Below, one piece after another: positions 7,186-54,000 of a DNA stretch of 64,000 nt. The stretch is taken from assembly GCA_016215115.1 (NCBI GenBank), contig JACRLN010000024.1, positions 35,337-99,336 on the forward strand, given 5' to 3'. The notes below the pieces were generated by a model, which searched no databases, was not told the DNA's origin, and was given only the letters and a program-made list of their open reading frames with translations. Source of the DNA: Nitrospirota bacterium (GTDB lineage Bacteria > Nitrospirota > Thermodesulfovibrionia > UBA6902). Position numbers and translations under genes: made by a program. Numbering within the stretch: position 1 is the stretch's first letter; each line of letters begins with the position of its first letter.

Positions 7186-8412
7186 TTACAGAAAGGTTCC
7201 TTTTTTATTCTTTTTATTGCTGTACATAAGTTTATCTGCCTCAGCCAGCAGCTCATCGGCAGAAAGAGGCGATGTCGGATCAAAACACGATATACCGACA
7301 CTGATTGAGAGCTTGTAACCGTGTTCTTCCTGTACATTGTAAGCATCGATGTTTTTCTGCAGTCTATCCATAATTATTTCAACATGGCCCTCTGAGGTCC
7401 CTACGGGGAAAACCACAAACTCATCGCCGCCGATGCGGGCGATAATGTCGGATTCACGGTACGTTGCTTTCAGGATATTGGCTGTCACAAGCAACACCTC
7501 ATCACCATTATTGTGTCCCAGGGTATCATTGATTTCTTTCAGATTATCCAGGTCCGCATAAAGCAGCATAAGTTTCATGTTTTGACGTTTGGCTAATTTC
7601 AGATGATGCTCAATCAGTTTGAAGAAACCCCGTCTGTTGTAAAGCCCTGTCAGTTCATCGGTAATTGAAAGGCTGTGCAGTTGCTTTTCTATCTTCTTGC
7701 GTTCAGTGATATCCCTGACTACATGTATCAGACCTGTTATCTTATTATTTCTGTCCCGTCGCGGGATCGCCCGTATTTCCATAAACATATTTAAATGAGG
7801 CTCAAATATTTCAGAATTGCAGGGTTCACCTGTAGTTAGGGAATTGCAGCTCGGACACCCCCGCAAAGGCTTTTCTGTGCCATGATAATGCGTATAACAT
7901 TTTGAATTAAATATCTTATCCAGGACAGGCAATTGAAACTTTTCCAGCGCTGACCTGTTGGCCCGTATGATATTAAAATCCTTGTCATGAATTGTGACAA
8001 TGTCTGTGATGGAATTGAAGACGTCTTCCCAGTCTTGCTTGGCCTGAAGGATGGTTTCTTCCGCTTTCTTAAGCTCGACTATTTGCCGTTGAAATGGCTT
8101 TATCAACAAAATGTAAATTATCGGGAATATTGTTAATGTCAATAAAGACGCATCAAGGAGAGCCCCCCGAAACTTCAATGAAAAAGACAAAATAGGAAAA
8201 ACAAGCATGACAACAACTTCTGTCAGGAATATCGACACCACAGCAATGAGAAAGAGATGAAGAGGTTTGCTGTAATTTAATTCAGTCCTTAGGGATAGTG
8301 AATCCCTTGAGTCCTTGTTTGAAGAATTCATATTTGCCATGTATTCAGATTTCATATAATAATATCCCGTCGGTCTGCTATTTGTGACTCTTATCGGCAT
8401 TTCAATCACCAT
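7186..8412 (-). CDS. membrane-anchored PAS-GGDEF diguanylate cyclase
   Basis: Two N-terminal TM helices, a PAS-like domain with a Cys cluster (CYTHYHGTEKPLRGCPSCNS) and an intact GGDEF active site (RIGGDEFVVF). Confidence 0.8.
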   Translation of the reverse strand: MVIEMPIRVTNSRPTGYYYMKSEYMANMNSSNKDSRDSLSLRTELNYSKPLHLFLIAVVSIFLTEVVVMLVFPILSFSLKFRGALLDASLLTLTIFPIIYILLIKPFQRQIVELKKAEETILQAKQDWEDVFNSITDIVTIHDKDFNIIRANRSALEKFQLPVLDKIFNSKCYTHYHGTEKPLRGCPSCNSLTTGEPCNSEIFEPHLNMFMEIRAIPRRDRNNKITGLIHVVRDITERKKIEKQLHSLSITDELTGLYNRRGFFKLIEHHLKLAKRQNMKLMLLYADLDNLKEINDTLGHNNGDEVLLVTANILKATYRESDIIARIGGDEFVVFPVGTSEGHVEIIMDRLQKNIDAYNVQEEHGYKLSISVGISCFDPTSPLSADELLAEADKLMYSNKKNKKGTFL

Positions 8413-11390: not shown

Positions 11391-11431
11391 AGCTGACAGC
11401 TGTTTGCTGATAGCTTATAGGAGAGATAAAA

Positions 11432-12388: not shown

Positions 12389-12418
12389 GAGCAAAAATAG
12401 AGTAGAATAAGTACATAA

Positions 12419-12493
12419 GCGCGGAAGAGCAGAAGCGCGGAAGTAAAGAAAATAAAAAGACTTTCGGGCTTTCGGGCTTACGAACTTCCGAGC
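12419..12493. repeat. Family D element: imperfect inverted repeat made of degenerate 7-8-mers (GGAAGAG CAGAAGC GCGGAAG ... ACTTTCG GGCTTTCG ... GAACTTCC)
   Basis: Seen directly between porB and tRNA-Asn. Similar elements at 26421-26510, 37461-37540 and 63481-63550. Confidence 0.7.
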
Positions 12494-12502
12494 TAAAAAT
12501 GT

Positions 12503-12834: not shown

Positions 12835-14652
12835 ATGAAATTATCATTGAAAAAAAGTTTTACTCTTTTAATTTTTCCGATTGTAGCGCTCATTGCTATA
12901 TTGTGCATCGCAGTATTTCCCTCTATCAGAAACATATGGTCTGACTGGGGCGTTATTGTTTTCTTTCTTATAGTCAGTGCAATTTGTATAGGAAGCCTGA
13001 TTTTTTTTTACAGAAAAACAATACGTCCCGTTCTTAAACTCAAAACTGCAACATCAAAGATAGGTGATGGAGATCTTGATGCCGGTTTAAATATTTCTTC
13101 AGAAAATGAGCATGGAGAATTGGCACAATCTTTTAACAGGATGACAAAAACTCTTAAAATTTCCAGAGATGAGCTGGAAAGCGTGGTCCGGAAACGTACT
13201 CTTGAACTTACCATTACCAATGAAAAGTTACTGCAGGAAATTAGCGAGCGTAAGCGTGCGGAAGAGCAATTACAATATGATGCATTTCATGATTCTCTAA
13301 CAGGCTTGCCCAACAGGGCCTTATTCATGGACCGCCTGGCACATCTTCTGATTCTTTCAAAACGACGTTTAAATCATCCTTTCGCAGTTTTGTTTTTGGA
13401 CGTCGACCGTTTCAAGATTATCAATGACAGCCTCGGTCATACAGTTGGGGACCAATTACTGATTGCGATTGGTCAACGGCTGCTGTCAAGCCTCAAGCCC
13501 GGAGATACGGTTGCACGTTTTGGAGGAGATGAATTTGCAATTCTCCTGGAAGACATAAGTGATCTCAACAACATTTTAAATGTTGCTGAACGCATACAAA
13601 TGGAGATTTGCAAGCCCTTTAATATGAATAACTTTGAAATATTCACTACAGCAAGTATCGGTTTGGCAATGAACTCAACAGATTATGAGAATCCTGAACA
13701 GATATTGCGCGATGCTGATATTGCAATGTACCAGGCAAAAGCCAAGGGAAAATCCTGCGCGGTAGTTTTTGAAAAAGGTATGCACACCATGGCTGTCGAA
13801 CTTCTGAAATTGGAGACTGACTTGAGAAAGGCAGTTGAAAGGAATGAATTCGTGGTTTATTATCAGCCTGTCGTATCATCTATCGCCAACTGTGTCATTG
13901 GTTATGAAGCGCTCGTACGCTGGAAACATCCGGAACGCGGACTTCTTTATCCAGGGGATTTCATCCATATAGCAGAAGAAACCGGCCTCATTGTATTTAT
14001 TGACAGATTTGTCCTCAGGGAAGCCTGCTCGCAGATGAGCAAGTGGCAACGGCAATTTCCTCAAAGTGCACTCAAGTTCATCAGCGTAAACATTTCGAAT
14101 AAGCAGTTCCTTCAGCCTGACCTGGTTGAATATGTTACAGGGGTTATTAATGAAACCAACATTGATAAGAAAAGTTTAAAGATCGAGATAACAGAAAATG
14201 TCATCATAGAAAACCCTGAAGCTCTGATAGAAATATTTTCCCAGTTGCGAAATATCGGCATTCAGCTTTATATTGATGATTTTGGCACAGGATATTCATC
14301 GTTAAGTTATCTTCACCGCTTGCCTATTGACGGTATAAAAATTGATCGCTCTTTCATACAACGAATTGGTAATAAGGGAGAAAATCATGAAATAATTAAA
14401 ACGATCATGCTGCTGGCGCAGGATATGAATGTGGATGTTATTGCTGAAGGCATAGAAACAGAAAATCAGCTTGCAAGCATTAAAACGTTGAAATGTGACT
14501 ATTGGCAGGGATTTCTCTTTTTTAAACCTGTGGACAGCGAGCATGCAGAGGCTTTAATCAAAACAGCTCCGAATACAAATAAACCTGCAGATTACAATCT
14601 ACATTCCCAACAGAAAAAAAGTATAATTTCAGACATTGCGAGTGATGTTTGA
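12835..14652 (+). CDS. membrane HAMP-GGDEF-EAL c-di-GMP turnover protein
   Basis: TM helices, HAMP, GGDEF (RFGGDEFAIL) and EAL (YEALVRW ... conserved downstream motifs). Confidence 0.8.
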   Translation: MKLSLKKSFTLLIFPIVALIAILCIAVFPSIRNIWSDWGVIVFFLIVSAICIGSLIFFYRKTIRPVLKLKTATSKIGDGDLDAGLNISSENEHGELAQSFNRMTKTLKISRDELESVVRKRTLELTITNEKLLQEISERKRAEEQLQYDAFHDSLTGLPNRALFMDRLAHLLILSKRRLNHPFAVLFLDVDRFKIINDSLGHTVGDQLLIAIGQRLLSSLKPGDTVARFGGDEFAILLEDISDLNNILNVAERIQMEICKPFNMNNFEIFTTASIGLAMNSTDYENPEQILRDADIAMYQAKAKGKSCAVVFEKGMHTMAVELLKLETDLRKAVERNEFVVYYQPVVSSIANCVIGYEALVRWKHPERGLLYPGDFIHIAEETGLIVFIDRFVLREACSQMSKWQRQFPQSALKFISVNISNKQFLQPDLVEYVTGVINETNIDKKSLKIEITENVIIENPEALIEIFSQLRNIGIQLYIDDFGTGYSSLSYLHRLPIDGIKIDRSFIQRIGNKGENHEIIKTIMLLAQDMNVDVIAEGIETENQLASIKTLKCDYWQGFLFFKPVDSEHAEALIKTAPNTNKPADYNLHSQQKKSIISDIASDV

Positions 14653-14826: not shown

Positions 14827-14905
14827 GTCATTCCCGCATGTCGTTAGCGGGAATCCAGTAATTTCTATCCTCTGGATGCCCGATTAAAGTCCTCGGGCAT
14901 GACAG
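14827..14905. repeat. Family B double-hairpin repeat (GTCATTCCCGC...GCGGGAATCCAG ... GGGCATGACAG)
   Basis: Seen directly. Related copies at 22852-22932, 25689-25806, 29317-29400, 56866-56957, 57420-57512 and 58372-58445. Confidence 0.75.
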
Positions 14906-15989: not shown

Positions 15990-16675
15990 GGAACACCCTG
16001 AATATTGGTAAAGAACCAAATTTCCAGATAATAGTCATAACATCTGCAATCCTGCATCTGCTTCTGATTACCCTTATAGTCGTTCCGCTAAAAACAAGGA
16101 AAGATGAGTATAAAAGCTATTTTGTGAATCTTGTAGGTCCCATTGAATCTGTCAGAGAAACAAAAGGCAATGAAAATAATCACCTATCCCCTTTAGTAAA
16201 AGAGAATGAACTAAGCAAACCTCTGCCAAAAGCGGATATGTCTTTGGAGCCTTCCGACAAAGTATCAAAAGAAATAAGTAGGATGAGCGCCATAAGTGTA
16301 TTATCAAAACTGAAAAAGAAAAAAGAAGCGGGGACGGCTCATGAGATAGAAATTATAAGGCAAAAAATACAGGCAAGCGTTGCAAAGGGTCCCGGTATTC
16401 CAGGTGCTGTACAATCAATGAAATCCGATTCATATTATTCATTGATTACTCGCAAGATTTGGAGTGAATGGATTTATCCTGAAACCGGTTCTGCAGGACT
16501 TGAAGTGATTATAGCTGTAAAGTTAGACCGGGAGGGAAAGGTTATTTCACACGAAATTGAAAAATCTTCCGGCAACAGCCTCTTTGACCGCTCTGCCTTA
16601 AAAGCAATATCGAAAGCCAGCCCACTGCCGCCGCCTCCCGTTGAAATTGAAATAGGCGTGAGGTTTTATCTGTGA
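15986..16675 (+). CDS. tolA: TolA/TonB-family protein (C-terminal TonB-like domain)
   Basis: N-terminal TM anchor, charged linker, and a C-terminal TonB_C-like domain ending in PPPVEIEIGVRF. Position between tolR and tolB. Confidence 0.6.
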   Translation: MRNTLNIGKEPNFQIIVITSAILHLLLITLIVVPLKTRKDEYKSYFVNLVGPIESVRETKGNENNHLSPLVKENELSKPLPKADMSLEPSDKVSKEISRMSAISVLSKLKKKKEAGTAHEIEIIRQKIQASVAKGPGIPGAVQSMKSDSYYSLITRKIWSEWIYPETGSAGLEVIIAVKLDREGKVISHEIEKSSGNSLFDRSALKAISKASPLPPPPVEIEIGVRFYL

Positions 16676-17949
16676 AAAGTCAGCAGTCAGAAACAAGGAG
16701 TAAGGGGTCAGGAATAAGGGGTTTAATTTCAAATTTTAAATTTCAAATTTTTATTTTTTTACTTATTACTTGTCACTTGTCGCTTGTCACTGTTTCTGAC
16801 GCCAAAGTCTACATCGACATCACATCACCTGCTATTCAGAAGCTCCCAATATCAATAACAGCTAAAGGCGCTCCTGAGGCAAAAGAGATTGAGTCGATCA
16901 TAATAAATGACCTTGATTTCACAGGACTATTTTCTTTTGTCGCTCCGGAGGTCCCCGGGGCTGAGATCATTGTGCGATCTGATGTTGATGTTTCATTAAA
17001 TGAAATAACTGTTCTCTGGTCTATCATTGATTTAGTTGAAAACAAAGAAGCGCTCAAGAAACGAAATACCGCATCCAGAAAAAGTATCCGTGCAATAGCC
17101 CATAACATATCAAACGATATTTATAAATTTATAACTGAAAAGGAAGGGGTTTTCAGGACAAAAATTTCCTATCTTGTATCCGTATCACCGGGGAATAAAG
17201 AACTGTATTTAATGGACTGGGATGGATATAGCCCGATAAAGGTAATACCGGTCGGTTTAACCTCAAGTCATGCATGGTCGAATGACAGCCGTTTTCTCAT
17301 ATATTCATCAGAGAGAAACAGGGCCTGGAAGATATATTTCTTCGATATTAATGATTTCAGAGAAATTGTGCTGTTTTCCTCAAACGGACTAAACCTTGTC
17401 GGGAACTCCTCACCGCGGGATGAGATAGCGTTCTCATCATCCAAAGACGGCAATTCAGAAATATATACTATAAATAAAGACGGAAGCAATCTTCGAAAAC
17501 TTACGCATTCATTCGGAATTGATGTTTCCCCGGTGTTTTCTCCTGATGGATCCTCCATAGCCTTAGTATCAGACAGAGGAGGTTCTCCGCAGATATATAT
17601 AATGGATTCAAATGGAAGCGGGATAAGAAGAATAACGTTTGAAGGTTCATATAACACATCTCCCACATGGTCTCCTGACGGAAAATGGATAGCTTATACC
17701 GGAATGAAGGATGGCAAAAATCAGATTTTCATGGTAAAATCTGACGGAACAGGACTAAGACAACTTACTTTCAACGGTAATAACGAAAGTCCATCATTGT
17801 CTCCCGATGGTCTGTTTTTAGCATTTGATTCTGACAGAGATGGCAAGCGCGGTATTTACATTATGCGACTCAATGGAGATGAACAGAGAAGGATTACACC
17901 AAAGGATACAAAAGCCATGGCGCCAAAATGGTCGCCGTATTTTAATTAA
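16672..17949 (+). CDS. tolB: Tol-Pal system beta-propeller protein TolB
   Basis: TolB N-terminal domain plus a WD40-like propeller with repeated SPDG motifs. The N-terminal extension and signal-peptide region are encoded by a 7-mer tandem repeat (ACTTGTC x3). Confidence 0.8.
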   Translation: MKSQQSETRSKGSGIRGLISNFKFQIFIFLLITCHLSLVTVSDAKVYIDITSPAIQKLPISITAKGAPEAKEIESIIINDLDFTGLFSFVAPEVPGAEIIVRSDVDVSLNEITVLWSIIDLVENKEALKKRNTASRKSIRAIAHNISNDIYKFITEKEGVFRTKISYLVSVSPGNKELYLMDWDGYSPIKVIPVGLTSSHAWSNDSRFLIYSSERNRAWKIYFFDINDFREIVLFSSNGLNLVGNSSPRDEIAFSSSKDGNSEIYTINKDGSNLRKLTHSFGIDVSPVFSPDGSSIALVSDRGGSPQIYIMDSNGSGIRRITFEGSYNTSPTWSPDGKWIAYTGMKDGKNQIFMVKSDGTGLRQLTFNGNNESPSLSPDGLFLAFDSDRDGKRGIYIMRLNGDEQRRITPKDTKAMAPKWSPYFN

Positions 17950-18528: not shown

Positions 18529-18594
18529 CATTCAATTAACCACAGAGAACACTGAGGATCTGAATAGAAGATATGAAGTTGAGAAGTTAGGAAG

Positions 18595-19632
18595 ATGAAA
18601 AGGAAATTATATATGAGATTAAAGAATCTTAAAAACAGCCTTTTCATTCTATCCGCTGTCTTCTGTCTTCTTTGTTCTGTTCTAATATTCACCGGATGCG
18701 CTACAACAGAAGATGTGAATAGAACGCAGTATGATACCAATTTATTAAAAACCGAGGTCCGGGATATAAAGGAAAAATTATCTTCACCGCTTCAAAAGGA
18801 AAAACTTGTCACGCTTGACAAAAAACTGCAGGAAATTCAGAGCACACAGGAATTAACTTCTAAATCAGTTTCAGACCTGCTGATTCAATTCCAGTCTCTC
18901 ACAACAGAATTCCGTGTTCTTACCGGCCGCTTTGAAGAATCACGCTATTATGCTGAAAAAGTTTCGACAGAAATGAAGTCTGAAAAAGAAAAACTTGCCG
19001 CTCAATTGAAGGAGTTGGAACTCTCAATTGATGATTTAAAGAAAAGGGTTGCATTAGCGGAAAAAATAGCCTCTCCTGACTTGAAGGAGGAAGCAAACCC
19101 GGCAGAAGAGAAGAAAACTGTTGAAGAAGCAAAGACGGTCGAGGAAACGAAAAAGGCTCAGGAGTCAGAAAAGAAAGGGCTCGAGAAACCTGAAGATAAA
19201 AAAGAAGCTCAAAAAACTGAACGCAAGAAAGAAATAACAAAAACGGATGTGAAAGATGTCTATCTAACCGGTTATCAGGCCTTCAAGGAAGGCAAAACTG
19301 CGGAGGCAAGAGAAAACTTCATGTCTGTGCTCAAAGATTATCCTGACAATGAATATTCGGACAATGCGCGTTTCTGGATGGCTGAAAGTTACTATAAGGA
19401 AAAGAACTATGAAGACGCCATCCTTGTATATGAAGAACTTTTAAAAAAGAATCCTAAAAGCGACAAGGCGTCAGGCGCATTGTGGAAGCAGGGATTGTCT
19501 TTTTATGCTTTGAAAGACGAAAAGACAGGCAAGATAGTTCTGGAGAAACTGATAGAGCAATTCCCAAATTCTGAACAGGCACTGCTTGCAAAAAAGAAGC
19601 TTGGCAAAACCCCCCCTTCAAAGAAGAAATAA
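18595..19632 (+). CDS. cpoB: Tol-Pal cell-division coordinator CpoB/YbgF (coiled coil + TPR)
   Basis: Lipoprotein-like signal (LIFTGC), a long coiled-coil region and C-terminal TPR repeats, last gene of the tol-pal cluster. The start may be at the downstream Met (MRLKNL). Confidence 0.7.
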   Translation: MKRKLYMRLKNLKNSLFILSAVFCLLCSVLIFTGCATTEDVNRTQYDTNLLKTEVRDIKEKLSSPLQKEKLVTLDKKLQEIQSTQELTSKSVSDLLIQFQSLTTEFRVLTGRFEESRYYAEKVSTEMKSEKEKLAAQLKELELSIDDLKKRVALAEKIASPDLKEEANPAEEKKTVEEAKTVEETKKAQESEKKGLEKPEDKKEAQKTERKKEITKTDVKDVYLTGYQAFKEGKTAEARENFMSVLKDYPDNEYSDNARFWMAESYYKEKNYEDAILVYEELLKKNPKSDKASGALWKQGLSFYALKDEKTGKIVLEKLIEQFPNSEQALLAKKKLGKTPPSKKK

Positions 19633-21545: not shown

Positions 21546-21562
21546 ATGTAATCATCTTTATA

Positions 21563-21638
21563 AAATCTCCCCTTACCCCTCTTTGCCAAAGAGGGGAATT
21601 AGTTCCCCCTTTGAAAAAGGGGGAGAAAGGGGGATTTT
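21563..21638. repeat. Family A MITE-like repeat, copy 2
   Basis: AAAATCTCCCC TTA CCCCTCTTTGCCAAAGAGGGG ... CCCCCTTTGAAAAAGGGGG AGA AAGGGGGATTTTTT. Flanked by the HAD stop and the methyltransferase start. Confidence 0.8.
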
Positions 21639-22851: not shown

Positions 22852-22932
22852 GTCATACCCGCGAAGGCGGGTATCCAGAAGTCTTTGGTTTTATAGAATA
22901 CTGGATTCCCGATAAAGACATCGGGAATGACG
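22852..22932. repeat. Family B double-hairpin repeat copy
   Basis: GTCATACCCGCGAAGGCGGGTATCCAG ... CTGGATTCCCGATAAAGACATCGGGAATGAC. Confidence 0.75.
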
Positions 22933-23030
22933 AATAAAGACTATTGCAAGAGCTTCAAACTACAAGATTAGTTATAATTTATAAGTTGATTTAATAATAT
23001 ATAATTATAACTAAACTTATTTATTTTAGC

Positions 23031-25688: not shown

Positions 25689-25806
25689 TCAAACGCGTGT
25701 CATGCCCGAAGCCTGCCCTCGAATGTCGTAATCGGGGGTCTTTAATCGGGCATCCAGAACTTATTAAAAAGACTGGATTCCCGCTCAACAGACTGCGGGA
25801 ATGACG
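25689..25806. repeat. Family B repeat, extended copy with three hairpins
   Basis: GTCATGCCCGAAGCCTGCCCTCGAATGTCGTAATCGGGGGTC ... GGGCATCCAG ... CTGGATTCCCGCTCAACAGACTGCGGGAATGAC. Confidence 0.75.
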
Positions 25807-26273: not shown

Positions 26274-26420
26274 TTTTTTTGTTTTCTCACCTCAAAGTTT
26301 ACAAAAACTGTCTCTAATTGTTATTATTTAAATTCAGATTGCATGCTTTAACCGTTCAGTAGCTTCTGTAACCACCAATATGTTTTAAGGAATGGTATAG
26401 ACGTTTTTTTATCTGGAAAG

Positions 26421-26510
26421 ACGAGTGAGAAGTAGAAAGTGGGAAGTAAAGAAAGAAAAATTTAATATGCCTTTTTTACTTCTTACCTCTTACTTCCTAC
26501 TTCTTACTTA
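26421..26510. repeat. Family D element: (GAGTGAG AAGTAGA AAGTGGG AAGTAAA GAAAGAA) ... inverted (TTTTTACTTCTTACCTCTTACTTCCTACTTCTTACTTA)
   Basis: Seen directly. A long imperfect hairpin built from heptamer units, sitting between tRNA-Arg and the glutamate synthase genes. Confidence 0.7.
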
Positions 26511-26522
26511 AGGAAAGAAAAC

Positions 26523-29272: not shown

Positions 29273-29316
29273 AGATAAAACAAAGAACAAAGAACACAGA
29301 GCACAGACTAAAAACA

Positions 29317-29400
29317 TGTCATTCCCGCAGTCTGTTGAGCGGGAATCCAGAGTCTTTTTAGAGGGAACTGGATTCCGGCTTAAGGACTGCCGGAATGACA
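29317..29400. repeat. Family B double-hairpin repeat copy
   Basis: GTCATTCCCGCAGTCTGTTGAGCGGGAATCCAG ... CTGGATTCCGGCTTAAGGACTGCCGGAATGACA. About 90% identical to the reverse complement of the copy at 56866-56957. Confidence 0.8.
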
Positions 29401-29440
29401 ACTTTAATAGTATCTTCGGGACAGCGACATCAATTTAACA

Positions 29441-32013: not shown

Positions 32014-33585
32014 ATGAAGCTGCGCTATAAAATAATAGGCATATGCATGGTCTTCTCCTTAATTGCCGGTATTACTATATTCTTCAGTATTGACACAATC
32101 ATTTCTTTGAAAGATAATTTTTCGAGGGTTACAGATGAAACAATGCCGGTTATCAAAAGCCTCGAGGATTTAAGGTTCGCAGCTCTCAGGATAGTCTCTT
32201 CTACACATGAATTTGGCCTTATCATCGCAGAAACGAAAACAGCTGATAAAGCTGAAAAAAATCAGGAACGGAAAGAAGAGAATCATATAAAATCTGCAAA
32301 AGAACTATATGAAAACGCCCTTAAGAGGTATGAATATTTAACAAATATGAATTCTCCGGGAAAAAGAGATCATGTGAAAAACGTGCATGAAGCGGGACAG
32401 CATTTTCTACAACTGAGCGAACAATTCATAGAAATGAAAGAACATGGTTCTGCCGGTTTAGAAATCCTTGAGATAATGAAACAATTTGAAAATGCAAAAA
32501 TATTTTTCCTGAATACAATAAACATGCACCTCGATCAGGAAGGAAAAGAGCTTCAGGAACGAAGAGCGAAAGTTGCATCCATGTATGGGAATGCGATTAA
32601 AACAATATTTATTGTGAGTGGGACCACATTTTTCATGGCCCTGATAAGCAGCTTAATAATGTCAGTGTTCATCACGCGTCCGATTGAGAAATTAAAGCTT
32701 GCTGCTGCCATGATAGGACAGGGCGCTTTAGACACTAAGGTAGATATAAGATCTAATGACGAGATTGGAGAACTGGCAAGGTCTTTTAACAAAATGACCT
32801 GTGACTTGAAAAAATCACGCGATGAATTATCTTCAACAACCGAAAGGCTAAAACAGAGCAACAAAGAACTTCATGAATTTCTTTTCATCGCTTCGCATGA
32901 TCTTCAGGAGCCCTTACGGAAAGTCATGGTATTCGGAGATCGGTTGAAGGACACCGACTCAGAAATTCTCAGCGAAAAGGGACGGGATTATATTGAGCGA
33001 ATGCAGAATACAACAAGGAGAATGCAGGTACTTATCAATGACCTCCTGTCATTTGCAAGAGTAAGCATTAATACCAAACCCTTTATCCCGGTTGATCTTT
33101 CCATGGTAGCTAAAAATGTGACAACTGATATAAAAGCTCTTATTAAACAAACAGGAGGGAGTGTTGAAGTCAAAGAACTGGCTGCGTTGGATGCTAACCC
33201 TGTCCAGATGCATCAACTGTTTTTTAACATTATTGACAATGCTTTAAAATTCCGTAAAAAGAACGAACCACCTGTCGTTACAGTGCAAGGCGCATATATT
33301 CCAAAAAATGGAGCTGACCAAAGCAGCAGTTCTAACGAATGCGGATTATACCAAATCACAATTGAAGACAACGGCATAGGCTTTGATGAAAAGTATGCAG
33401 AACGCATCTTCAGGGTTTTTCAGAGACTGCATGCCAGAAATGAGTATTCAGGGACCGGTATCGGTCTTTCAGTCTGCAAAAAGATTGTAGAGCGCCATGG
33501 CGGAAGTATTTCGGCGAAAAGTGCGCCTGGCGATGGCACGAAATTAATTGTAACCTTACCAGTCAAACAGAGTAATGGGGGATAA
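32014..33585 (+). CDS. membrane sensor histidine kinase (2 TM, HAMP, HisKA, HATPase_c)
   Basis: H-box ASHDLQEPLRKV, plus N/G boxes (DNGIGFDEKYAERIF, GTGIGLSVCKK). Confidence 0.8.
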   Translation: MKLRYKIIGICMVFSLIAGITIFFSIDTIISLKDNFSRVTDETMPVIKSLEDLRFAALRIVSSTHEFGLIIAETKTADKAEKNQERKEENHIKSAKELYENALKRYEYLTNMNSPGKRDHVKNVHEAGQHFLQLSEQFIEMKEHGSAGLEILEIMKQFENAKIFFLNTINMHLDQEGKELQERRAKVASMYGNAIKTIFIVSGTTFFMALISSLIMSVFITRPIEKLKLAAAMIGQGALDTKVDIRSNDEIGELARSFNKMTCDLKKSRDELSSTTERLKQSNKELHEFLFIASHDLQEPLRKVMVFGDRLKDTDSEILSEKGRDYIERMQNTTRRMQVLINDLLSFARVSINTKPFIPVDLSMVAKNVTTDIKALIKQTGGSVEVKELAALDANPVQMHQLFFNIIDNALKFRKKNEPPVVTVQGAYIPKNGADQSSSSNECGLYQITIEDNGIGFDEKYAERIFRVFQRLHARNEYSGTGIGLSVCKKIVERHGGSISAKSAPGDGTKLIVTLPVKQSNGG

Positions 33586-33617: not shown

Positions 33618-35054
33618 ATGTTTAAATCAATAAAACTAAAGATACTTGCCGCGCAAATTGTTATGAGCCTGCTTACGGCTCTTACGATAACCATCTTCAG
33701 AAATGCTGCAATTATTTTCCTCATAGTACTTGGCATAAGCATTATAATCTCCCGGAAACTGTCTTATAGCATAACGGCACCGATTATCAAACTCTCCAGG
33801 ACGACTCAGGGCGATTTTTTACAAAAAGTGCATATCGACTCAAATGATGAAATCGGCTTCCTTGCTGCCTCTATCAACCGGTTGATGGAAACTCTCCAGA
33901 AAACAATGAGGTCCTGCGAGGCATTTCAGGAACAAAGTGAATTCCTCAAGCATGTTGTCAATTCAATCCCCTATCCTTTTATTGTCTTAAATGCTGCAGA
34001 CTTCTCTGTTAAACTGGCAAACTCAGCCGCTTCACAATCAGGAGACTTCAAAAACATGCCCTGTTATGAAATAGCTAAACTGTCTGACATGCCATGCGTA
34101 GGCCATGAGCACAAGTGTTGTCTCGAATCAATAAAAGAGACTAAAGAACCGGTAATCATAGAGTGTCTGCATCATGATAAAGATGACAATAACAGATATT
34201 ACAGAATCCATGCTCATCCGATTTTTAATGACGGGGGGGACGTTACAGAGATAATCGAGTACTCAATTGATGTTACTGAAAGCAAGCGTGCAGAGATTGA
34301 TATCATAATGTATGCGGAAAAACTTAGGATAAGCAACAGGGAATTTCAGGAATTTTCCTATGTGGCCTCCCATGACCTTCAGGAGCCCTTACGGAAAGTG
34401 ACAGCTTTTGGTGACCGCCTGAAAGCCACATGTGGAGATGCTCTCGGGGAGAAAGGCAGTGATTACCTTGAGAGAATGCTGAACTCCGCAAAACGAATGC
34501 AGAACCTGATAAACGGTTTATTGGCTTTTTGCCATGTTACAACAAAGGCCCAGCCTCTTGTTCACGTGGACCTCTCCGTAATAACAAAAGAGGTTCTATC
34601 TGATCTCGAAGTGCGTATCGAACAGACTGGCGGACGGGTTGAAGTCGGAGATCTCCCCACACTGAATGCAGATCCGCTTCAGATGAGGCAATTATTACAG
34701 AACCTTATTGGTAATTCCCTTAAATTCCACAAAAAGGACGAACCTCCTGTTGTCAAAATTTCAGGATCTTTTATAAACAGTAATGGAAATAATCCAACTA
34801 TTGGACTTGATGACGGGAAACCCTATCAGATCATGGTTACAGACAACGGCATAGGATTTGATGAAAAATATGCAGAGCGTATATTTGGCGTATTTCAGAG
34901 GCTGCATGGCAGACAGGAGTATGAAGGAACCGGCATCGGTCTCTCTGTTTGCAAAAAAATTGTCGAAAGACACGGCGGAACCATAACTGCAAAAAGTACC
35001 CCGGGAGAAGGAACAACATTTATAGTGACGCTCCCTGTAAAGCAGTCAAATTGA
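33618..35054 (+). CDS. sensor histidine kinase (TM, HAMP, Cys-containing PAS, HisKA, HATPase_c); paralog of the upstream kinase
   Basis: H-box ASHDLQEPLRKV. The C-terminal 230 aa are near-collinear with the 32014 kinase. The PAS region carries PCYEIAKLSDMPCVGHEHKCC. Confidence 0.8.
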   Translation: MFKSIKLKILAAQIVMSLLTALTITIFRNAAIIFLIVLGISIIISRKLSYSITAPIIKLSRTTQGDFLQKVHIDSNDEIGFLAASINRLMETLQKTMRSCEAFQEQSEFLKHVVNSIPYPFIVLNAADFSVKLANSAASQSGDFKNMPCYEIAKLSDMPCVGHEHKCCLESIKETKEPVIIECLHHDKDDNNRYYRIHAHPIFNDGGDVTEIIEYSIDVTESKRAEIDIIMYAEKLRISNREFQEFSYVASHDLQEPLRKVTAFGDRLKATCGDALGEKGSDYLERMLNSAKRMQNLINGLLAFCHVTTKAQPLVHVDLSVITKEVLSDLEVRIEQTGGRVEVGDLPTLNADPLQMRQLLQNLIGNSLKFHKKDEPPVVKISGSFINSNGNNPTIGLDDGKPYQIMVTDNGIGFDEKYAERIFGVFQRLHGRQEYEGTGIGLSVCKKIVERHGGTITAKSTPGEGTTFIVTLPVKQSN

Positions 35055-35170: not shown

Positions 35171-36961
35171 ATGACTGACAAAGTAATAAAAATACTGCTG
35201 GTGGACGACGATGAGGATGATTATATCATGACCCGGGACCTGCTTTCCGGGGTCGAAGGCACACACTACGAATTGCAGTGGATTAAAACCTATGACAGCG
35301 CCGTTGAAATTATTGATCAGAAAAATCATGATGTTTATCTTTTTGATTATCACCTTGGCGAACACACTGGACTGGAGCTCCTGCTTCAGGTAATCAAAAA
35401 TGGATGCAGGGCGCCGATTATCATGCTGACCGGCCAGGGGGACAAGGAATTAGACATGCAGGCAATGAAAACAGGCGCAGCAGATTACCTTGTGAAAGGA
35501 CACATCAATTCCCCGCTGCTGGAACGGTCTATCAGGTATGCCATTGAACGAAAGCGCTCAGAAGAAGATATATACCGGATGGCATATTATGACATCCTGA
35601 CCAATCTCCCGAACCGTCTTCTTTTCAGGGACCGACTGAAACAGGCGATCGGCCTTGCCGAACGTTATAACAGGCTGGGTGCGGTAATGTTTCTTGATCT
35701 CGACAACTTCAAGCGTATCAACGATACCTTTGGCCACTATACAGGTGACCAGCTATTAAAAAGTACCGCTGAACGTCTAAAAAACTGTATGCGCAAATGC
35801 GACTCCCTGTCCCGGCAAAACGTTGATGATTCGGTCGACACAATTGCCCGTCTGGGCGGTGATGAATTTACAATAATACTTACAGAGATCAAGCACATCG
35901 AAGATTCTGCAAAAGTAGCACAGCGGATTCTCGGCAGCCTGTCAGAGCAGTTTGTGCTGAACGACCATGAAATATTTATAAGCGCAAGTGTCGGCATAGC
36001 CATATATCCGCATGATGGAAAAGATATTGACAGCATTCTAAAAAACGCAGATGCGGCGATGTATCATGCAAAGGCAGAGGGGAAAAATAATTACCAGTAT
36101 TACAAACAGTCCATGAACGCTTCCGCACTTGAAAAACTTACGATGGAAAATGACCTTCGGAAGGCGCTTGAACGGAAAGAGTTTACTCTCTATTATCAGC
36201 CACAGATTGATATCGCAAAGCGTAAAATAGTCGGGCTGGAAGCGCTGATAAGATGGCACAGGACAGACAAGACAGTAGTTTTACCTGCAGATTTTATTCC
36301 ACTGGCCGAAGAAACCGGCTTAATAATTCCAATAAGCAATTGGGTAATACATACGGCCTGTGAGCAAAATAAGGCGTGGCAGGCTGCCGGTTTTTCAAAT
36401 ATTCCCATATCAGTCAACATTTCCAATCTGCAGTTTCAGCAAAAAAATTTCGTAAATACTATTGTTCAGGTTTTGAGAGATACCGGCCTGCGCCCGGGAA
36501 ATATCATACTGGAAATTACCGAAAGCACAATTATGCATAATGCAGATATGGTATTTGCAACATTATATGAACTGTCTTGCATGGGATTACGGCTCACAAT
36601 TGATGATTTCGGAACCGGTTATTCGTCCCTGAGCTATCTGAAACGCATTCCTCTTTATTCCATAAAGATCGACCGTTCTTTTATAAAGGAACTACCTGAC
36701 AGTCCTGATGATGCAGCAATTTCAAAGGCGATCATTTCGATGGCGCATTCTCTGAAACTAAGAGTTGTTGCAGAAGGCGTTGAAACAGAACAGCAACTGG
36801 CATTTTTATCTAAACAGGGATGCGACGAGTTTCAGGGATTTCTTTTCAGCCGTCCCTTGCCTGCAGACGAGATTTTTAAATTATTGACCGGGGAAAGAAA
36901 TGGTGCGGGCCTCATGTTGTCATCTTTGCACAAAATATCGGAACCCGTGCAGAAGACTTAA
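35171..36961 (+). CDS. response regulator with REC-GGDEF-EAL domains
   Basis: REC (ILLVDDDEDD ... phospho-Asp region), GGDEF (RLGGDEFTII) and EAL (LEALIRW ... conserved downstream motifs). Confidence 0.85.
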   Translation: MTDKVIKILLVDDDEDDYIMTRDLLSGVEGTHYELQWIKTYDSAVEIIDQKNHDVYLFDYHLGEHTGLELLLQVIKNGCRAPIIMLTGQGDKELDMQAMKTGAADYLVKGHINSPLLERSIRYAIERKRSEEDIYRMAYYDILTNLPNRLLFRDRLKQAIGLAERYNRLGAVMFLDLDNFKRINDTFGHYTGDQLLKSTAERLKNCMRKCDSLSRQNVDDSVDTIARLGGDEFTIILTEIKHIEDSAKVAQRILGSLSEQFVLNDHEIFISASVGIAIYPHDGKDIDSILKNADAAMYHAKAEGKNNYQYYKQSMNASALEKLTMENDLRKALERKEFTLYYQPQIDIAKRKIVGLEALIRWHRTDKTVVLPADFIPLAEETGLIIPISNWVIHTACEQNKAWQAAGFSNIPISVNISNLQFQQKNFVNTIVQVLRDTGLRPGNIILEITESTIMHNADMVFATLYELSCMGLRLTIDDFGTGYSSLSYLKRIPLYSIKIDRSFIKELPDSPDDAAISKAIISMAHSLKLRVVAEGVETEQQLAFLSKQGCDEFQGFLFSRPLPADEIFKLLTGERNGAGLMLSSLHKISEPVQKT

Positions 36962-37446: not shown

Positions 37447-37460
37447 GGCAGAGGCATGAA

Positions 37461-37540
37461 ATAGAAGAAGTTGAGAAAATTGGAAGATGAGAAGTTGTGC
37501 CCTTTTGCCTTCATAATTTCCGGACATTCCCTTAAGCTTT
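37461..37540. repeat. Family D element (AGAAGAAGTTGAGAAAATTGGAAGATGAGAAGTTG ... inverted CTTTTGCCTTCATAATTTCCGGACATTCCCTTAAGC)
   Basis: Seen directly, 3' of the REC gene. Confidence 0.6.
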
Positions 37541-37643
37541 AACATATTTAATCCGATATAAATAAACGAGAGGAGAGCGCTCGTTTTTCAGCGTGTATAA
37601 TGCATGTGCAGTCTGAAAAAAGTACATATTAAGTGGTAAAAAA

Positions 37644-38576
37644 ATGGCAAAGAAATATTTATTAACTCTGATATGCCTCCTTGTTATTGGAGCATCAGGT
37701 TGCAGCAGAAACGACGATGTTAAAAAAATAAACCTTTCTGAAAAGATAGACGTAAAAAATACCGGGAAGCAATCAGAAAAAAGTCCTGTCCGCATCGCAG
37801 TCGGGGGTATGACTACTCCCAGGGCAGGATTTGTTTATTATAAACAGCTTCTGAATTATATAGGTGAAAAACTCGGAAGAAAAGTAGAATTTGTTGACAG
37901 GGAAGACTATGCGGCAATCAACAACATGCTGCAAAACAGGGAGATTGACGTGGCCTTTGTATGCGGCGGTCCGTATGTTGACGGACATGAAGAGTTCGGG
38001 CTTGAACTTTTAGCCGCTCCTGTGGCCTACGGCGGGACAGTATATTACTCATATATTATAGTGCCGAAAGACAGTCCTGTTAAGAATTTTAAAGAGCTGC
38101 GCGGTAAGACCTTTGCCTTTTCCGATCCTTTGTCCAACAGCGGGAAATTAATCCCCACATATATGCTGGCCAAAATGAATGAGACGCCGGAGAGTTTTTT
38201 TAAAAGTTTTTATTATACACATGCCCATGACAAATCCATAAAGGCTGTGGCCACCGGGGTCGTGGACGGAGCCGCTGTTGACAGCCTTATATGGGAATAT
38301 GCAAATCATACGAATCCCGAGTTTACATCAAAGACAAAGATAATTGAGAAGTCTTCACCGCATGGAATTCCGCCAGTTGTAATTCGTCACGGAATGGACC
38401 TTGAATTAAAAGAAAGACTGCGGCAGATTTTTTTGAACGCCCATAATGACAAAAAAGGGCAGGAGATTCTCAAGGGGATGATGATAGAAAAATTTGTCCC
38501 GATAGATAATAAAGCGTATGATTCTATAAGGGAAATGAAGCAATGGGTGGATAAACAAACAGCAGGAAAGAAATGA
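37644..38576 (+). CDS. periplasmic substrate-binding lipoprotein, PhnD/SsuA-like (PBP2 fold)
   Basis: Lipobox LLVIGASGC. PhnD-like binding-domain core (RIAVGGMTTPRAGFVYYKQL ... DVAFVCGGPYV). Its stop overlaps the start of the downstream kinase (ATGA). Confidence 0.65.
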   Translation: MAKKYLLTLICLLVIGASGCSRNDDVKKINLSEKIDVKNTGKQSEKSPVRIAVGGMTTPRAGFVYYKQLLNYIGEKLGRKVEFVDREDYAAINNMLQNREIDVAFVCGGPYVDGHEEFGLELLAAPVAYGGTVYYSYIIVPKDSPVKNFKELRGKTFAFSDPLSNSGKLIPTYMLAKMNETPESFFKSFYYTHAHDKSIKAVATGVVDGAAVDSLIWEYANHTNPEFTSKTKIIEKSSPHGIPPVVIRHGMDLELKERLRQIFLNAHNDKKGQEILKGMMIEKFVPIDNKAYDSIREMKQWVDKQTAGKK

Positions 38577-44705: not shown

Positions 44706-44726
44706 GAAAAAGTTTGTAAGATCGTA

Positions 44727-44818
44727 GTAGGGGCGATCCGGTGGATCGCCCCTACGAGAGGACACAAAAAGGGCACGTCGCGACGTGCCCCTACAGGGCG
44801 TATGCCATACGCCCCTAC
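44727..44818. repeat. Family C palindromic (REP-like) repeats, three consecutive palindromes
   Basis: GTAGGGGCGATCCGGTGGATCGCCCCTAC, then the perfect palindrome GGCACGTCGCGACGTGCC, then GGGCGTATGCCATACGCCC. Followed at 44840-44880 by an 8-mer array (CTTTTGCA CTTCTGCT CTTTTGCA CTTTCGCG). Confidence 0.8.
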
Positions 44819-44938
44819 TTTATTGCTTACGCCCTTCCCCGCTTTTGCACTTCTGCTCTTTTGCACTTTCGCGCTCTTGACATTGTTCGGAAATAGCGTA
44901 TGATTTAATATGTAAAGCAAAAAAACAGGAGGTGTGCG

Positions 44939-45358
44939 ATGAAAACTGTAAAACAACTTTTGTTTGCCGCCCTCATAGGGCTTCTCATGGTTTCCGTGGC
45001 AATGGCACAAGAGAAAGCAAGTCAAACTGCCGAGCCGGGCCCAACCACAACCTATCAGGCCAAGTTTCCAATCACCATTCAGGGCGGAGAATATGATATG
45101 AAAACCGTCATAATAGATTTCCCTCAAGGGGTGGGGATGCCTACACATATGCATGGCGGACACGTACTTGTGATAGTACTGAATGGTGAGATGACACTCA
45201 AAGAGAAAGGCACAGAGAGGATAATAAAAGCCGGAGAAAGCTGGACTGAGAATCCCGGCAATCACCACTCAGTCGTCAATGCAGGCTCTACCACTGCCAG
45301 GGTTGTGGTTAACATGCTGCTGCCAAAAGGCGCTGAGGCTACCACGATAATTAAGTAG
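44939..45358 (+). CDS. secreted cupin-domain protein
   Basis: Signal peptide (LLFAALIGLLMVSVAMAQE). A cupin_2-like core (PTHMHGGHVLVIVLNGEM ... NPGNHHS). Confidence 0.6.
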   Translation: MKTVKQLLFAALIGLLMVSVAMAQEKASQTAEPGPTTTYQAKFPITIQGGEYDMKTVIIDFPQGVGMPTHMHGGHVLVIVLNGEMTLKEKGTERIIKAGESWTENPGNHHSVVNAGSTTARVVVNMLLPKGAEATTIIK

Positions 45359-45426
45359 GGGCGATCCGGTGGATTGCCCAAGTGTGGTATCGGGGAAAAA
45401 AGGGCGACCCGCCGGGTCGACCCTAC
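45356..45426. repeat. Family C palindromic repeats (GTAGGGGCGATCCGGTGGATTGCCC ... GGGCGACCCGCCGGGTCGACCCTAC)
   Basis: Seen directly, downstream of the cupin gene. Confidence 0.75.
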
Positions 45427-49460: not shown

Positions 49461-49462
49461 AT

Positions 49463-50455
49463 TTACTCCTTCTCAACTGGTAGTCCAGCGTTTTTCATTT
49501 TATCTCTGAATTCATCTTCATACTCTTGATACGTATGAACCTCAACCGGATAATTCCATGGATTAACATGCCTGACCATACGACTGTTATTGGGAAGATT
49601 CCGTGTCGGGCTGAGCAATACCCCTCCAAGATGCATTATCTTACTGTACGGAATATAAGCAATCAATGTGCTGACGAGTAACAGGTGGATATAAAATATA
49701 ACGCTTATTCCCTCAGGAATCTTGGTATTAAAAGTAACCAGCCCCATTGTCAAAGTTTTTATGCTGACCAAATCCACTCTCAGAAAATACCTCATCAGGA
49801 TGCCGGTAATGGCAATGCTCATAATAAGGAAAAGCGGGAAATAATCAGCGGCAAGAGAAATATAACGGACTTGCGGGACAAAAACCCTTCTCAGAAAAAG
49901 ATAGGTTACAGCTAATAGAAGAACTACCCCGCTTATCAGTACCCCGGGTATTCCTACTTGTAAAAATCCGTCAAGGGCCTCAACGTTCTTCAGAAAGGCA
50001 GGAACCGGTTCAGTAAATAGCCTTATATGTCTTACCAACACAATAAAAAACGACCAGTGGAACGCAAGGCCTCCCAGCCAAAGCCATTTTGTCGATCCGT
50101 AAGAGAGCTTCGGGCCTTCTCTTAATTCAAATTTTGTATTGCTGAAAAGGGATCGGAACAATAAAACTTCAAGGAGCATCCTTCCGACAACTCCAGAGGT
50201 TGTTGAGGGATTGTCAAGTTTGGACTGCTTAATCCATGGCAGGGACTGTTGCTGACCGCAGGTGGTTGGTATACAAAAAGGCACCGGCACGCGTCCCCAT
50301 TTCATGACGCGGGAAATTACTCCAATCAGAAAAACAATAATTGCAATATACGGAACAACTATCCCGAAGAGGAAATGAAGGTTTGCCCCCTTGACTCCTA
50401 TTAAAGGAATTAAAACAAGCCCTATAACAGCTATCAGGGAAAGAATGGCATTCAT
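49463..50455 (-). CDS. dsrM: DsrM, NarI/HdrE-like membrane dihaem cytochrome b
   Basis: 330 aa, 5-6 TM helices, conserved His residues in the helices. Immediately upstream of dsrK. Confidence 0.75.
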   Translation of the reverse strand: MNAILSLIAVIGLVLIPLIGVKGANLHFLFGIVVPYIAIIVFLIGVISRVMKWGRVPVPFCIPTTCGQQQSLPWIKQSKLDNPSTTSGVVGRMLLEVLLFRSLFSNTKFELREGPKLSYGSTKWLWLGGLAFHWSFFIVLVRHIRLFTEPVPAFLKNVEALDGFLQVGIPGVLISGVVLLLAVTYLFLRRVFVPQVRYISLAADYFPLFLIMSIAITGILMRYFLRVDLVSIKTLTMGLVTFNTKIPEGISVIFYIHLLLVSTLIAYIPYSKIMHLGGVLLSPTRNLPNNSRMVRHVNPWNYPVEVHTYQEYEDEFRDKMKNAGLPVEKE

Positions 50456-51021: not shown

Positions 51022-51114
51022 CTCGTGCCTCTATCTTACACAGGGCATTACAATCCTGTACCCTTCAGGTTTAAAGGTTCTTTAAAAAAGATTTTAATTA
51101 TTTAAAGGGTAATA

Positions 51115-51450: not shown

Positions 51451-51591
51451 TTTTGTACTCCTTTCTTCTTAATGTATTTGGTATCTTCTATTTCAAACGG
51501 AAGATATTTGTAATGGTTAAACTGGAAAACAGGGTAAAACTATAATACATAACACTGTTACAGGTCAAATAAAAAAATCTTATAAAAACAT

Positions 51592-53546: not shown

Positions 53547-53571
53547 TAATTAATTTAACAAAGGCGCACAA

Positions 53572-53670: not shown

Positions 53671-53697
53671 CAAGGCTTAATGACAAATTTTATGTAC

Positions 53698-53966: not shown

Positions 53967-54000
53967 TTTGTAGGGGCGACCCGCCGGGTCGCCCCTACAT
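53967..54000. repeat. Family C perfect palindrome TGTAGGGGCGACCCGCCGGGTCGCCCCTACA
   Basis: Seen directly between dsrB and dsrD. Confidence 0.85.

Follow-up and report, generated by a model that had tools for sequence, protein, structure and literature searches.

We analysed a 64-kb stretch of DNA (hereafter the window) from a metagenome-assembled genome (MAG) of Nitrospirota (Thermodesulfovibrionia). The window is 89% coding, and a first-pass annotation of it had described a family of intergenic imperfect hairpins. We found that these elements are most likely lineage-specific tandem arrays of 7- or 8-base units, each unit with a conserved core and free flanks, in the Nitrospirota genome of a sulfate reducer. 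The arrays appear to take two forms, either a single array or a convergent pair, the latter made up of a purine-rich array, a short A/T spacer, and the reverse-complement pyrimidine-rich array. A convergent pair would fold back into a long imperfect hairpin as a consequence of this arrangement, and not because an RNA structure had been selected.

Enrichment of period-7 and period-8 arrays

The periodicity of the window was compared with that of 100 dinucleotide-preserving shuffles. GAAG or CTTC occurred three times in succession at a spacing of exactly 8 bases at 11 sites versus 0.01 expected, so that the unit periodicity claimed in the first-pass annotation survived a composition-matched shuffling control. 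No site was found in the window for either motif at any other spacing between 4 and 14. When any 4-mer occurring three times was counted, spacing 7 gave 58 occurrences (expected 1.8) and spacing 8 gave 27 (expected 1.85); at period 7 there were 8 strict periodic runs where 0.05 were expected, and at period 8 there were 2 where 0 were expected. Arrays of both periods thus exceeded the dinucleotide shuffles 15- to 30-fold or more, and many of them were also listed by Tandem Repeats Finder. As in known heptamer arrays, head-to-tail units of about 7 bases in at least three copies were enriched over shuffles, with the reservation that the GAAG family has a period of 8 and not 7. Also as in heptamer arrays, the locations were mostly intergenic: 10 of 17 arrays were non-coding despite the high coding density of the window (p = 2e-6 to 5e-4). 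The 7 coding arrays fell in three signal peptides (tolB, lolA, and cpoB), at three positions hypervariable among homologues (cobB sites 1 and 2, and a loop of FtsK), and in the interior of the large open reading frame (ORF) 38573-41296, where the array occupies 39653-39674.

The octamer unit of the GAAG family can be written (NNNNGAAG)n, and its profile in the window was [A/T][T/G][C/A/G][A/G]GAAG. GAAG arrays at separate loci were 70-83% similar over 30-40 bases. Between the two arms of a hairpin the identity was 55% at flanking positions and 92% at the core, the core of one arm per hairpin having been ascertained by the search itself. No covariation between hairpin arms was seen. The unit profile, together with the census and the polarity of foldback arrays reported below, showed the degenerate units with a conserved core and the frequent convergent inverted pairs that are typical of heptamer arrays.

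An independent assembly was available for part of the window: a Logan contig of 5.2 kb was 100% identical to positions 48465-53662. In addition, a metagenome contig of the Joint Genome Institute (JGI), L205, carried one of the intergenic elements (element A, below) with 3 substitutions. The arrays are not assembly artefacts, because the Logan assembly was identical and L205 carries element A.

Foldback elements and single arrays in spacers

The first-pass annotation had assigned four intergenic elements to one architecture. Three of them, which we named A, B, and D, were foldback arrays and formed long imperfect stems (fold z from -4.6 to -6.0), whereas the fourth, C, was a one-sided array with a decayed right partner and gave no hairpin (z = 0.05 for 37455-37545). 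Element A (12408-12493) is located between the porB stop (12388) and tRNA-Asn (12503), and is built of the octamers CGCGGAAG AGCAGAAG CGCGGAAG, an A-rich loop, and the inverted array CTTTCGGG CTTTCGGG CTTACGAA CTTCCGAG. Its fold (12412-12500) reached -31.5 kcal/mol with z = -5.4 on the plus strand, and -24 kcal/mol with z = -3.0 on the minus strand. Element B (26421-26510) consists of AAGTRRR heptamers, an A/T loop, and inverted TTACTTC heptamers (period 7 and 4.9 copies in Tandem Repeats Finder). An ORF of unknown family has its ATG at 26523, 13 bases past the end of B, and a promoter-like site lies upstream of the element at 26298-26327. Folding of 26412-26516 gave -32.9 kcal/mol (z = -4.6) on the plus strand and -28.8 kcal/mol (z = -3.7) on the minus strand. 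The differences between the arms of B amount to 4 G-U plus 3 A-C pairs when one strand is read, with the two numbers exchanged on its complement, so that neither transcript orientation is favoured.

Element D (63459-63575) is flanked by a conserved ORF of 51 residues, which stops at 63428, and by a co-directional gene of the nusG family, which starts at 63605 and has a confirmed NusG domain. The element is a nested foldback in the spacer that separates them, with outer arms CCACAGAGACACGGAG and CTCAGTGACTCAGTGG, themselves 8-periodic, placed around four GAAG and three CTTC octamers, and owing to these outer arms it extends beyond the coordinates first given to it. Its fold (63455-63580) reached -48.8 kcal/mol and z = -6.0 on the plus strand, and -51.4 kcal/mol and z = -7.4 on the minus strand. 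The 51-residue ORF gave no Pfam match, and secE was dropped as its identity. Element C (37461-37540) follows the stop (37446) of a receiver-domain gene, and its GAAG-type array (37461-37495) and the one at 18568-18602 share 80% identity (similarity family D8).

A half-element reported at 18566-18600 and an 8-mer array reported at 44840-44880 were both confirmed as arrays. The half-element spans 18541-18602 in the pal-cpoB spacer and consists of CCACAGAGAACACTGAGG followed by four GAAG octamers. This composite resembles the left half of D, lacks the inverted partner, and did not fold (z = 0.26 for 18535-18615). Common to D and the half-element is CCACAGAGA(A)CAC.GAG followed by four GAAG units, of which the last two match at 17/19 positions. 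The other array (44834-44879), upstream of a cupin gene at 44939, is made of a different octamer, CTTYTGCA, with a 16-base super-period; it did not fold either (z = 0.71 for 44825-44890), and is related to the cobB array 53243-53285 (similarity family D3). As a separate observation on the pal-cpoB spacer, the start of cpoB (ybgF) is more likely the ATG at 18623 (AAGGAAA 8 bases upstream; MRLKNLKN) than the ORF-maximal ATG at 18595, which overlaps the last GAAG unit of the half-element.

The first-pass annotation had missed a further hairpin, element E, within lolA, as well as the arrays at 61421-61448, 11392-11420, 29279-29307, and 18656-18680. The GAAG octamer array 61421-61448 (CCCGGAAG TGCTGAAG AGCGGAAG TTCATAAG) follows the lolA stop and precedes the next gene, whose ATG is at 61460; it showed no fold over 61400-61450. 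GCTGACA-type heptamers (11392-11420) stand directly upstream of the porB start (11432), and AACAAAG / AACACAG heptamers (29279-29307) just past the stop at 29272. Start codons are abutted by the arrays at 11392, 18567, 26421, and 61421. A proposed proximity of the elements to tRNAs applied to A and B only, since no other element is anywhere near a tRNA, and relative L204 keeps tRNA-Asn without element A.

Terminator, RNA and mobile-element classes

It had been suggested that the hairpins act as terminators or as RNA-stability elements. We found that the stems do not resemble those of intrinsic terminators, which combine a GC-rich stem, a short loop, and a T/U-rich tract; here the stems were long, interrupted, and AT-rich, with loops of 10-20 bases. 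Consensus scans of A, B, and D detected no terminator-like site with a T-run behind its stem, and this candidate was rejected. With regard to position at transcript ends, A follows porB, yet E and the copies in cobB, ftsK, and tolB are inside ORFs. The distribution of foldbacks by gene orientation was that of the background, and no enrichment at convergent gene ends was seen with the crude gene calls and small numbers at hand. Strand-specific selection on RNA was likewise rejected: minus strands folded about equally well, and folds remained significant under DNA energy parameters. Such similarity between the folds of the two strands favours no orientation of the transcript. A terminator role was therefore abandoned on the missing T-tracts at A, B, and D, the folding of both strands, the in-frame copies, the dispensability of A and D, and the use of canonical terminators by relatives. 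A role in RNA stability was not supported either, given the comparable folding of both strands, the in-frame copies, and the loss of elements in close relatives; an incidental effect on RNA stability may nevertheless occur.

At the Rfam gathering score, only two tRNAs were found in the window, and a permissive Rfam scan of element D returned only chance microRNA-precursor models (E of at least 0.08). A small RNA titrating CsrA/RsmA was rejected, since the GGAAG motifs sit in predicted stems and had no Rfam match. MITEs, or miniature inverted-repeat transposable elements, were rejected as well, with no duplication or sharp ends at the empty sites of relatives L204 and L083 and with a best similarity between copies no higher than the 70-83% given above. 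Repetitive extragenic palindromes (REPs) and the bacterial interspersed mosaic elements (BIMEs) built from them were rejected, as the copies have no conserved palindrome.

Arrays translated within genes

Element E (60713-60784, plus strand) is located in frame at the N-terminus of lolA, and consists of a GAAG octamer array, a loop, and a CTTC octamer array. Folding of 60705-60792 gave z = -4.4, with -29 kcal/mol on the minus strand. The purine arm is translated as KAEGKKIRRWEDKK and the pyrimidine arm as PLLNFLTSQLL; the lolA ORF is intact, and a LolA domain was found. Next to it, the signal peptide of LolA has its hydrophobic core, LVTCHLSLVT, encoded by an ACTTGTC array of 4.4 copies (60797-60828, plus strand). 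In the N-terminal coding region of tolB (16696-16791, plus strand), arrays of AGGRRTAAGGGGT, AATTTCA, and ACTTGTC units encode ..GLISNFKFQIFIFLLITCHLSLVT.. in a protein with a TolB family match. The ACTTGTC unit and its peptide (TCHLSLVT) are common to the LolA and TolB signal peptides. Similarly, AAATTTC arrays encode NFKFQI both in TolB and in a loop of FtsK; the FtsK array (59958-59992, plus strand) has 4.7 copies of this self-complementary unit, encodes FEISNFKFQIK, and folded with z = -3.5. A CTGTCTT heptamer array (18656-18680, plus strand) lies in the signal-peptide coding region of cpoB. The signal peptides of TolB, CpoB, and LolA (16672-16800, 18623-18690, and 60672-60840) are in fact largely encoded by heptamer arrays. 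A repeat-rich LolA N-terminus was present in 7/7 Thermodesulfovibrionia relatives examined (L001-L007, where lolA comes just after ftsK), with different units in each.

The cobB/dsrN-like gene carries two sites in frame on the minus strand: an array block at site 1 (53162-53286) with GAGTGGA, GAGTTAG, GATTTCR, and ACTTYTGC units, and a foldback at site 2 (52640-52710), GGTTGGGGGTTAG ... CTAATCCCTAATCC, with a 13-bp stem. An alignment of 20 cobB homologues showed three insertion sites, and site 1 was hypervariable in the protein alignment. The amidase encoded by this gene (51921-53546, minus strand) has these three insertion hot spots clade-wide, with homologues ranging from no insert to about 50 extra residues of translated repeats. 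Lengths among the 120 best matches of the cobB/dsrN family ran from 456 to 561 residues. We concluded that the arrays in genes are simply translated, and for six of the seven at weakly constrained positions. That the intergenic elements and dsrN, ftsK, tolB, and lolA use the same units, as had been claimed, holds for lolA only; the dsrN-like cobB, ftsK, and tolB contain other units (AAATTTC, ACTTGTC, GAGTKRG, CTAATCC, and ACTTYTGC).

Turnover between close relatives

The comparison set comprised the ftsK loci L001-L080 (Thermodesulfovibrionia, distant Nitrospirota, Acidobacteriota, and proteobacteria); two syntenic contigs about 85-88% identical to the window, L082 and L083, fetched via cobB homologues; and 80 PorB loci fetched from metagenomes, the porB-locus relatives amounting to 752 kb in total. 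Among the latter, the JGI contig L205 was 93.7% and L204 was 90.9% identical to the window at the nucleotide level. The best FtsK relatives of the window were MAGs of Thermodesulfovibrionia with identities of 58-69%, and the cobB/dsrN-like protein was 100% identical to a protein of a 'Nitrospirae bacterium' MAG. For PorB, an exact look-up gave no record.

The first-pass annotation had called for a comparison of presence and absence among related genomes, and this comparison showed elements A, D, and E to be missing or replaced at 85-94% identity. Element A was present in L205 and absent from L204, in which porB is followed by 8 bases and then by tRNA-Asn. After porB, other relatives had either different small hairpins or terminators of canonical form, in which a T-run follows a GC stem. 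Element D was absent from the orthologous spacer of L083, which measures about 50 bases versus about 230 in the window. In place of element E, L082 had an unrelated GC palindrome and L083 had AGTCARA heptamers, and the ACTTGTC array beside it was kept in the window, L082, and L083. At cobB site 1, the 36-base GATTTCR block of the window, which is nested within another array, was missing in L082, and about 95 bases were missing in L083. The foldback at cobB site 2 was conserved with changes in both contigs, site 3 was in three different states across the window, L082, and L083, and the FtsK array showed unit changes in both contigs. Array 61421 was partly kept in L083, with its period interrupted by an indel of 4 bases. 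No target-site duplications or defined ends were found at the empty sites (A versus L204, and D versus L083).

Distribution and polarity of the arrays

Period-7 arrays occurred at 2.0-2.4 per 10 kb in the window and its near relatives, versus 0.28 in distant Nitrospirota and 0.63 in other loci. Foldback arrays were counted with a symmetric detector (array, spacer, reverse-complement array). Their density per 100 kb was 6.25 in the window, 3.8-5.3 in near relatives, 1.9 in distant Nitrospirota, and 0-0.08 in shuffles. The load of 7- and 8-base arrays is thus a clade-level property in Thermodesulfovibrionia. Among the ftsK loci from outside Nitrospirota, 18/18 foldback matches fell in Acidobacteriota MAGs, mostly Thermoanaerobaculia, at a density close to that of the window (about 6 per 100 kb over about 299 kb), and none were found in about 850 kb of proteobacterial ftsK loci. 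By comparison, the GAAG octamer family had 8 sites in the 64-kb window versus 3 in the 752 kb of porB-locus relatives, one of the 3 being the orthologue of element A. No occurrence of GAAG three times at spacing 8 was found in the ftsK loci L001-L080 or in L082 and L083. A general pattern of four spaced GAAG motifs proved too unspecific for large collections, the matches listed among viral contigs being unrelated.

Across the window and all fetched loci, the purine-rich arm was 5' in 27 and the opposite in 2 of 38 foldbacks (p = 1.6e-6). This purine-first polarity was identical on both strands and is thus strand-symmetric, and it matches the orientation reported as 'convergent' for Xanthomonas repeats.

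Some foldbacks outside the window deserve mention. Near-perfect heptamer or octamer foldbacks occurred in Acidobacteriota (L017-L054 and L079), for example at 8151-8224 of L019, 8003-8079 of L032, and 15015-15112 of L022. A CACRGAGG octamer hairpin of L002 folded with z = -8.9, and a similar hairpin was present in the Thermoanaerobaculia locus L020. Octamer hairpins of the CACAGAGR / CACGGAGR type, ending in ..CTCTGTGG, were located at 8105-8195 and 8277-8301 of L002, 9821-9919 of L004, and 6171-6222 of L020, with the same octamers at 63459-63474 and 18543-18560 of the window. This recurrence suggests that some unit vocabularies are common to different phyla.

Origin of the arrays and alternative explanations

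On balance, the arrays are probably dispensable repeats generated at the DNA level and retained where constraint is weak, with a hairpin that is a side effect of the convergent arrangement and with at most incidental consequences for expression. Under this reading, arrays would be made and remodelled as DNA. Units may be amplified through strand slippage, and the inverted partner may come from intramolecular template switching or from ectopic copying between arrays. Most copies would be under little or no selection, and fast-turning dispensable DNA of this kind could persist in spacers, signal-peptide segments, and variable surface loops.

Several observations weigh against this explanation. 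In three-way comparisons, no single-unit steps of 7 or 8 bases were seen between relatives, although a divergence of 6-15% may hide such steps; instead, relatives differed by gain, loss, or replacement of whole blocks, with sizes of about 95 bases (A), more than 110 bases (D), and 36 bases (cobB). Drift at the four flanking positions has left the GAAG core intact, which is not how a perfect array would decay neutrally, though here again the core of one arm was ascertained by the search. A polarity of 27:2 is not predicted by neutral palindromes. Whole-block turnover, a conserved core with free flanks, and this polarity do not fit simple slippage. Furthermore, the GAAG octamer family is expanded in the window genome. 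Because of this expansion, and because D and 18541-18602 have a composite in common, copying between loci is suggested in place of independent local birth.

Copying is the essence of a MITE- or REP-like alternative, in which the foldbacks are mobile, moved or copied in trans by a hairpin-acting transposase or by a dedicated repeat-copying activity, with the hairpin ends as part of the recognition. We consider it unlikely, although much of the comparative evidence agrees with it: presence or absence of whole blocks between close relatives, expansion of the GAAG family in the window genome only, the composite found in both D and the half-element, the similarity of GAAG arrays between loci, the GATTTCR block nested in another cobB array, and the recurrence of CACRGAGR octamer hairpins in L002, L004, and one Acidobacteriota locus. 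Its difficulty lies in the copies themselves. The empty sites have neither target-site duplications nor defined termini, no two copies are near-identical or have much in common beyond the unit motif, the numbers of units in the arms differ within an element, and no transposase was found among the 24 window ORFs screened against protein-family libraries. A function of the hairpins in cis as RNA, whether as weak or bidirectional terminators, RNase III sites, 3'-end protection, or modulators of translation, is quite unlikely. Stem stability is very high (-27 to -51 kcal/mol), several stems are just upstream of start codons or just past stops, and some array is always found at the 5' end of LolA. 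Bidirectional intrinsic terminators have the purine arm first and the pyrimidine arm second, and the observed polarity matches that order. Yet A, B, and D have no T-tract after their stems, neither strand preference nor covariation was detected, and there was no Rfam match. Copies in coding sequence, absence or replacement in close relatives, canonical terminators at the porB 3' end of relatives, and the lack of enrichment at convergent gene ends (on crude calls and small numbers) speak against it in the same way.

The conserved core could alternatively be read by a protein. Spaced cores, GAAG or other, would then be bound by a regulator of single-strand nucleic acid or of DNA, with one protomer per unit, and such binding would account for a core that is conserved next to four variable flanks in an exact 8-base register, as well as for the arrays that abut start codons. 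Regulators of this sort have been proposed for the TAACTGA repeats of Beggiatoaceae (PMC4679880) and for Nostoc heptamers (bioRxiv 10.1101/2022.06.06.494920). We hold this explanation to be very improbable here. Units are wholly different between loci, and even between close relatives at one locus, because of which no single regulator could read the arrays; many copies are in coding regions or past stops, and the downstream genes have no functional theme. Hardly more probable is a dedicated repeat-generating or copy-paste activity, shared by Thermodesulfovibrionia and Thermoanaerobaculia and perhaps by the lineages with known heptamer repeats, that would write fixed-core blocks of 7-8-base units, always with the purine arm 5', and whose products would repeatedly be recruited as modules of coding sequence. 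When a purine arm precedes its complement, the pair could encode a charged and then a hydrophobic stretch, equivalent to the front half of a signal peptide, as in LolA.

Relation to known bacterial repeats

Bacterial genomes have for decades been known to contain over-represented repeats of 7 bases, to which neither a mechanism nor a function has been assigned, and the window adds a phylum and a fixed-core 8-base version to them. Cyanobacteria reportedly carry short tandemly repeated repetitive (STRR) heptamers, attributed to Mazel et al. 1990 (cited in PMC4692102). Like these, the arrays of the window are tandem heptanucleotides of several unit types, over-represented genome-wide and mostly non-coding; STRR sequences are usually near-perfect, foldbacks, an octamer period, and in-frame copies are not STRR traits, and the classical STRR units were not seen here. 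Rickettsia palindromic elements are in-frame selfish DNA in genes, conserved in sequence and 100-150 bp in length. They resemble the arrays in being palindromic repeats translated in frame at tolerant gene positions, but the inserts described here are unit arrays of 30-125 bases with no conserved sequence. With REPs, BIMEs, and MITEs the arrays have in common that they are small, dispersed, hairpin-forming, and mostly intergenic, and that they vary in presence; REPs and MITEs have a conserved sequence and conserved ends (and MITEs target-site duplications), whereas nothing but the unit motif and the period is common to the elements described here. As in Rho-independent terminators, a stable stem-loop stands in a spacer with its purine-rich arm 5' and its pyrimidine-rich arm 3'; unlike them, the stems are long, interrupted, and AT-rich with loops of 10-20 bases, no T-tract follows, and some copies are in ORFs.

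The closest known counterparts are the degenerate heptamers of Xanthomonas, with about 185 (GGGANTN)n repeats per genome, 89-93% of them intergenic (Rehm et al. 2015, PMC4692102). Between 70 and 75 close convergent array pairs can form stem-loops there, and length and sequence vary between close species (PMC4692102). In Xanthomonas and Nostoc, arrays of (GGGANTN)n and GGGGA(C/T)T usually have 3-5 units and have no assigned function; the idea that 7 bases correspond to the polymerase footprint, so that slippage is favoured, is cited in the same work (PMC4692102). Conserved core with variable positions, convergent pairs with stem-loop potential, and variation between close species are all found in our window as well. 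The differences are that the unit of the main family here is 8 bases long, has a GAAG core, and lacks the potential to form G-quadruplexes, that many unrelated units coexist with none dominant, that the host is a Nitrospirota MAG, and that a sizeable fraction of the arrays is in frame. Gene context is kept by 83% of the Xanthomonas repeats, whereas A, D, and E were lost or replaced at 85-94% identity. TAACTGA arrays, described in marine Beggiatoaceae, cyanobacteria, and Bacteroidetes (MacGregor 2015, PMC4679880), have 2-6 copies and are mostly intergenic, often at start codons. They show unit-step indels between strains and a patchy phylogenetic distribution, and a post-transcriptional regulator has been proposed (PMC4679880). 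That family has one fixed unit and 1 inverted versus 169 direct sets, whereas the window has many units, frequent inverted pairs, and no dominant start-codon position. In Nostoc, heptamers near start codons affect expression according to a preprint (bioRxiv 10.1101/2022.06.06.494920).

A literature search found no papers tying such heptamer repeats to Nitrospirae. The first-pass annotation was correct in recognising imperfect hairpins made of degenerate 7-8-base units and in separating the elements from classical REPs and MITEs, but it overstated how unusual they are, since degenerate heptamers with convergent pairs were already known from Xanthomonas (PMC4692102). The kind of repeat is already known, and the novelty lies in the phylum, the units, the period of 8 bases around a GAAG core, the nesting of composites, and the frequent occurrence of coding copies in frame. 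Any mechanism has to account for a strand-symmetric polarity of 27:2, whole-block turnover at 85-94% identity, and tolerance of in-frame copies. The arrays would offer a tractable entry point if a function or a specific enzyme lies behind the polarity; otherwise they are a known type of ordinary junk DNA. For annotation, the arrays lengthen ORFs, yield odd low-complexity N-termini and hypervariable inserts, and mimic terminators or small RNAs.

Other repeats and duplications in the window

Three further repeat families were separate from the arrays or differed from them in sequence. A 30-base near-perfect palindrome, GTAGGGGCGACCCGCCGGGTCGCCCCTAC, with REP-like GTAG...CTAC ends, was found at 44725-44755, 45353-45383, 45396-45426, 52127-52157, and 53968-53998. 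It is distinct from the GAAG arrays, and one copy is in frame in cobB site 3, where it is translated as VGATRRVAP. A double-hairpin family of about 77 bases, AAAATCCCCC..CCCCTTTGAAAAAGGGGG..GGGGGATTTT, which is separate from the arrays, occupies 343-419, 21562-21638, 53579-53681, 62296-62372, and 52106-52128. Translated copies appear as motifs of the PLFDKEGLGEI or PPLSKGG type in inserts or N-terminal extensions of the cobB homologues P0004, P0017, and P0018. The third small-repeat family, GTCATTCCCGC...GCGGGAATCCAG, was located at 29317-29401, 56869-56953, 25766-25805, 22881-22955, 57402-57476, and 14838-14867, and two of its copies, 85 bases long and 27 kb apart, are 94% complementary. Its motif also occurs in spacers of L209 and L213, and the peptide FPRKRESR in the cobB homologue P0019.

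Two pairs of genes represent ordinary gene duplication unrelated to the arrays: the paralogous GGDEF-EAL genes 12835-14652 and 35171-36961, with stretches that are 71% identical, and the tandem paralogous ORFs 32014-33585 and 33618-35054, in which a 236-base stretch is 74% identical.

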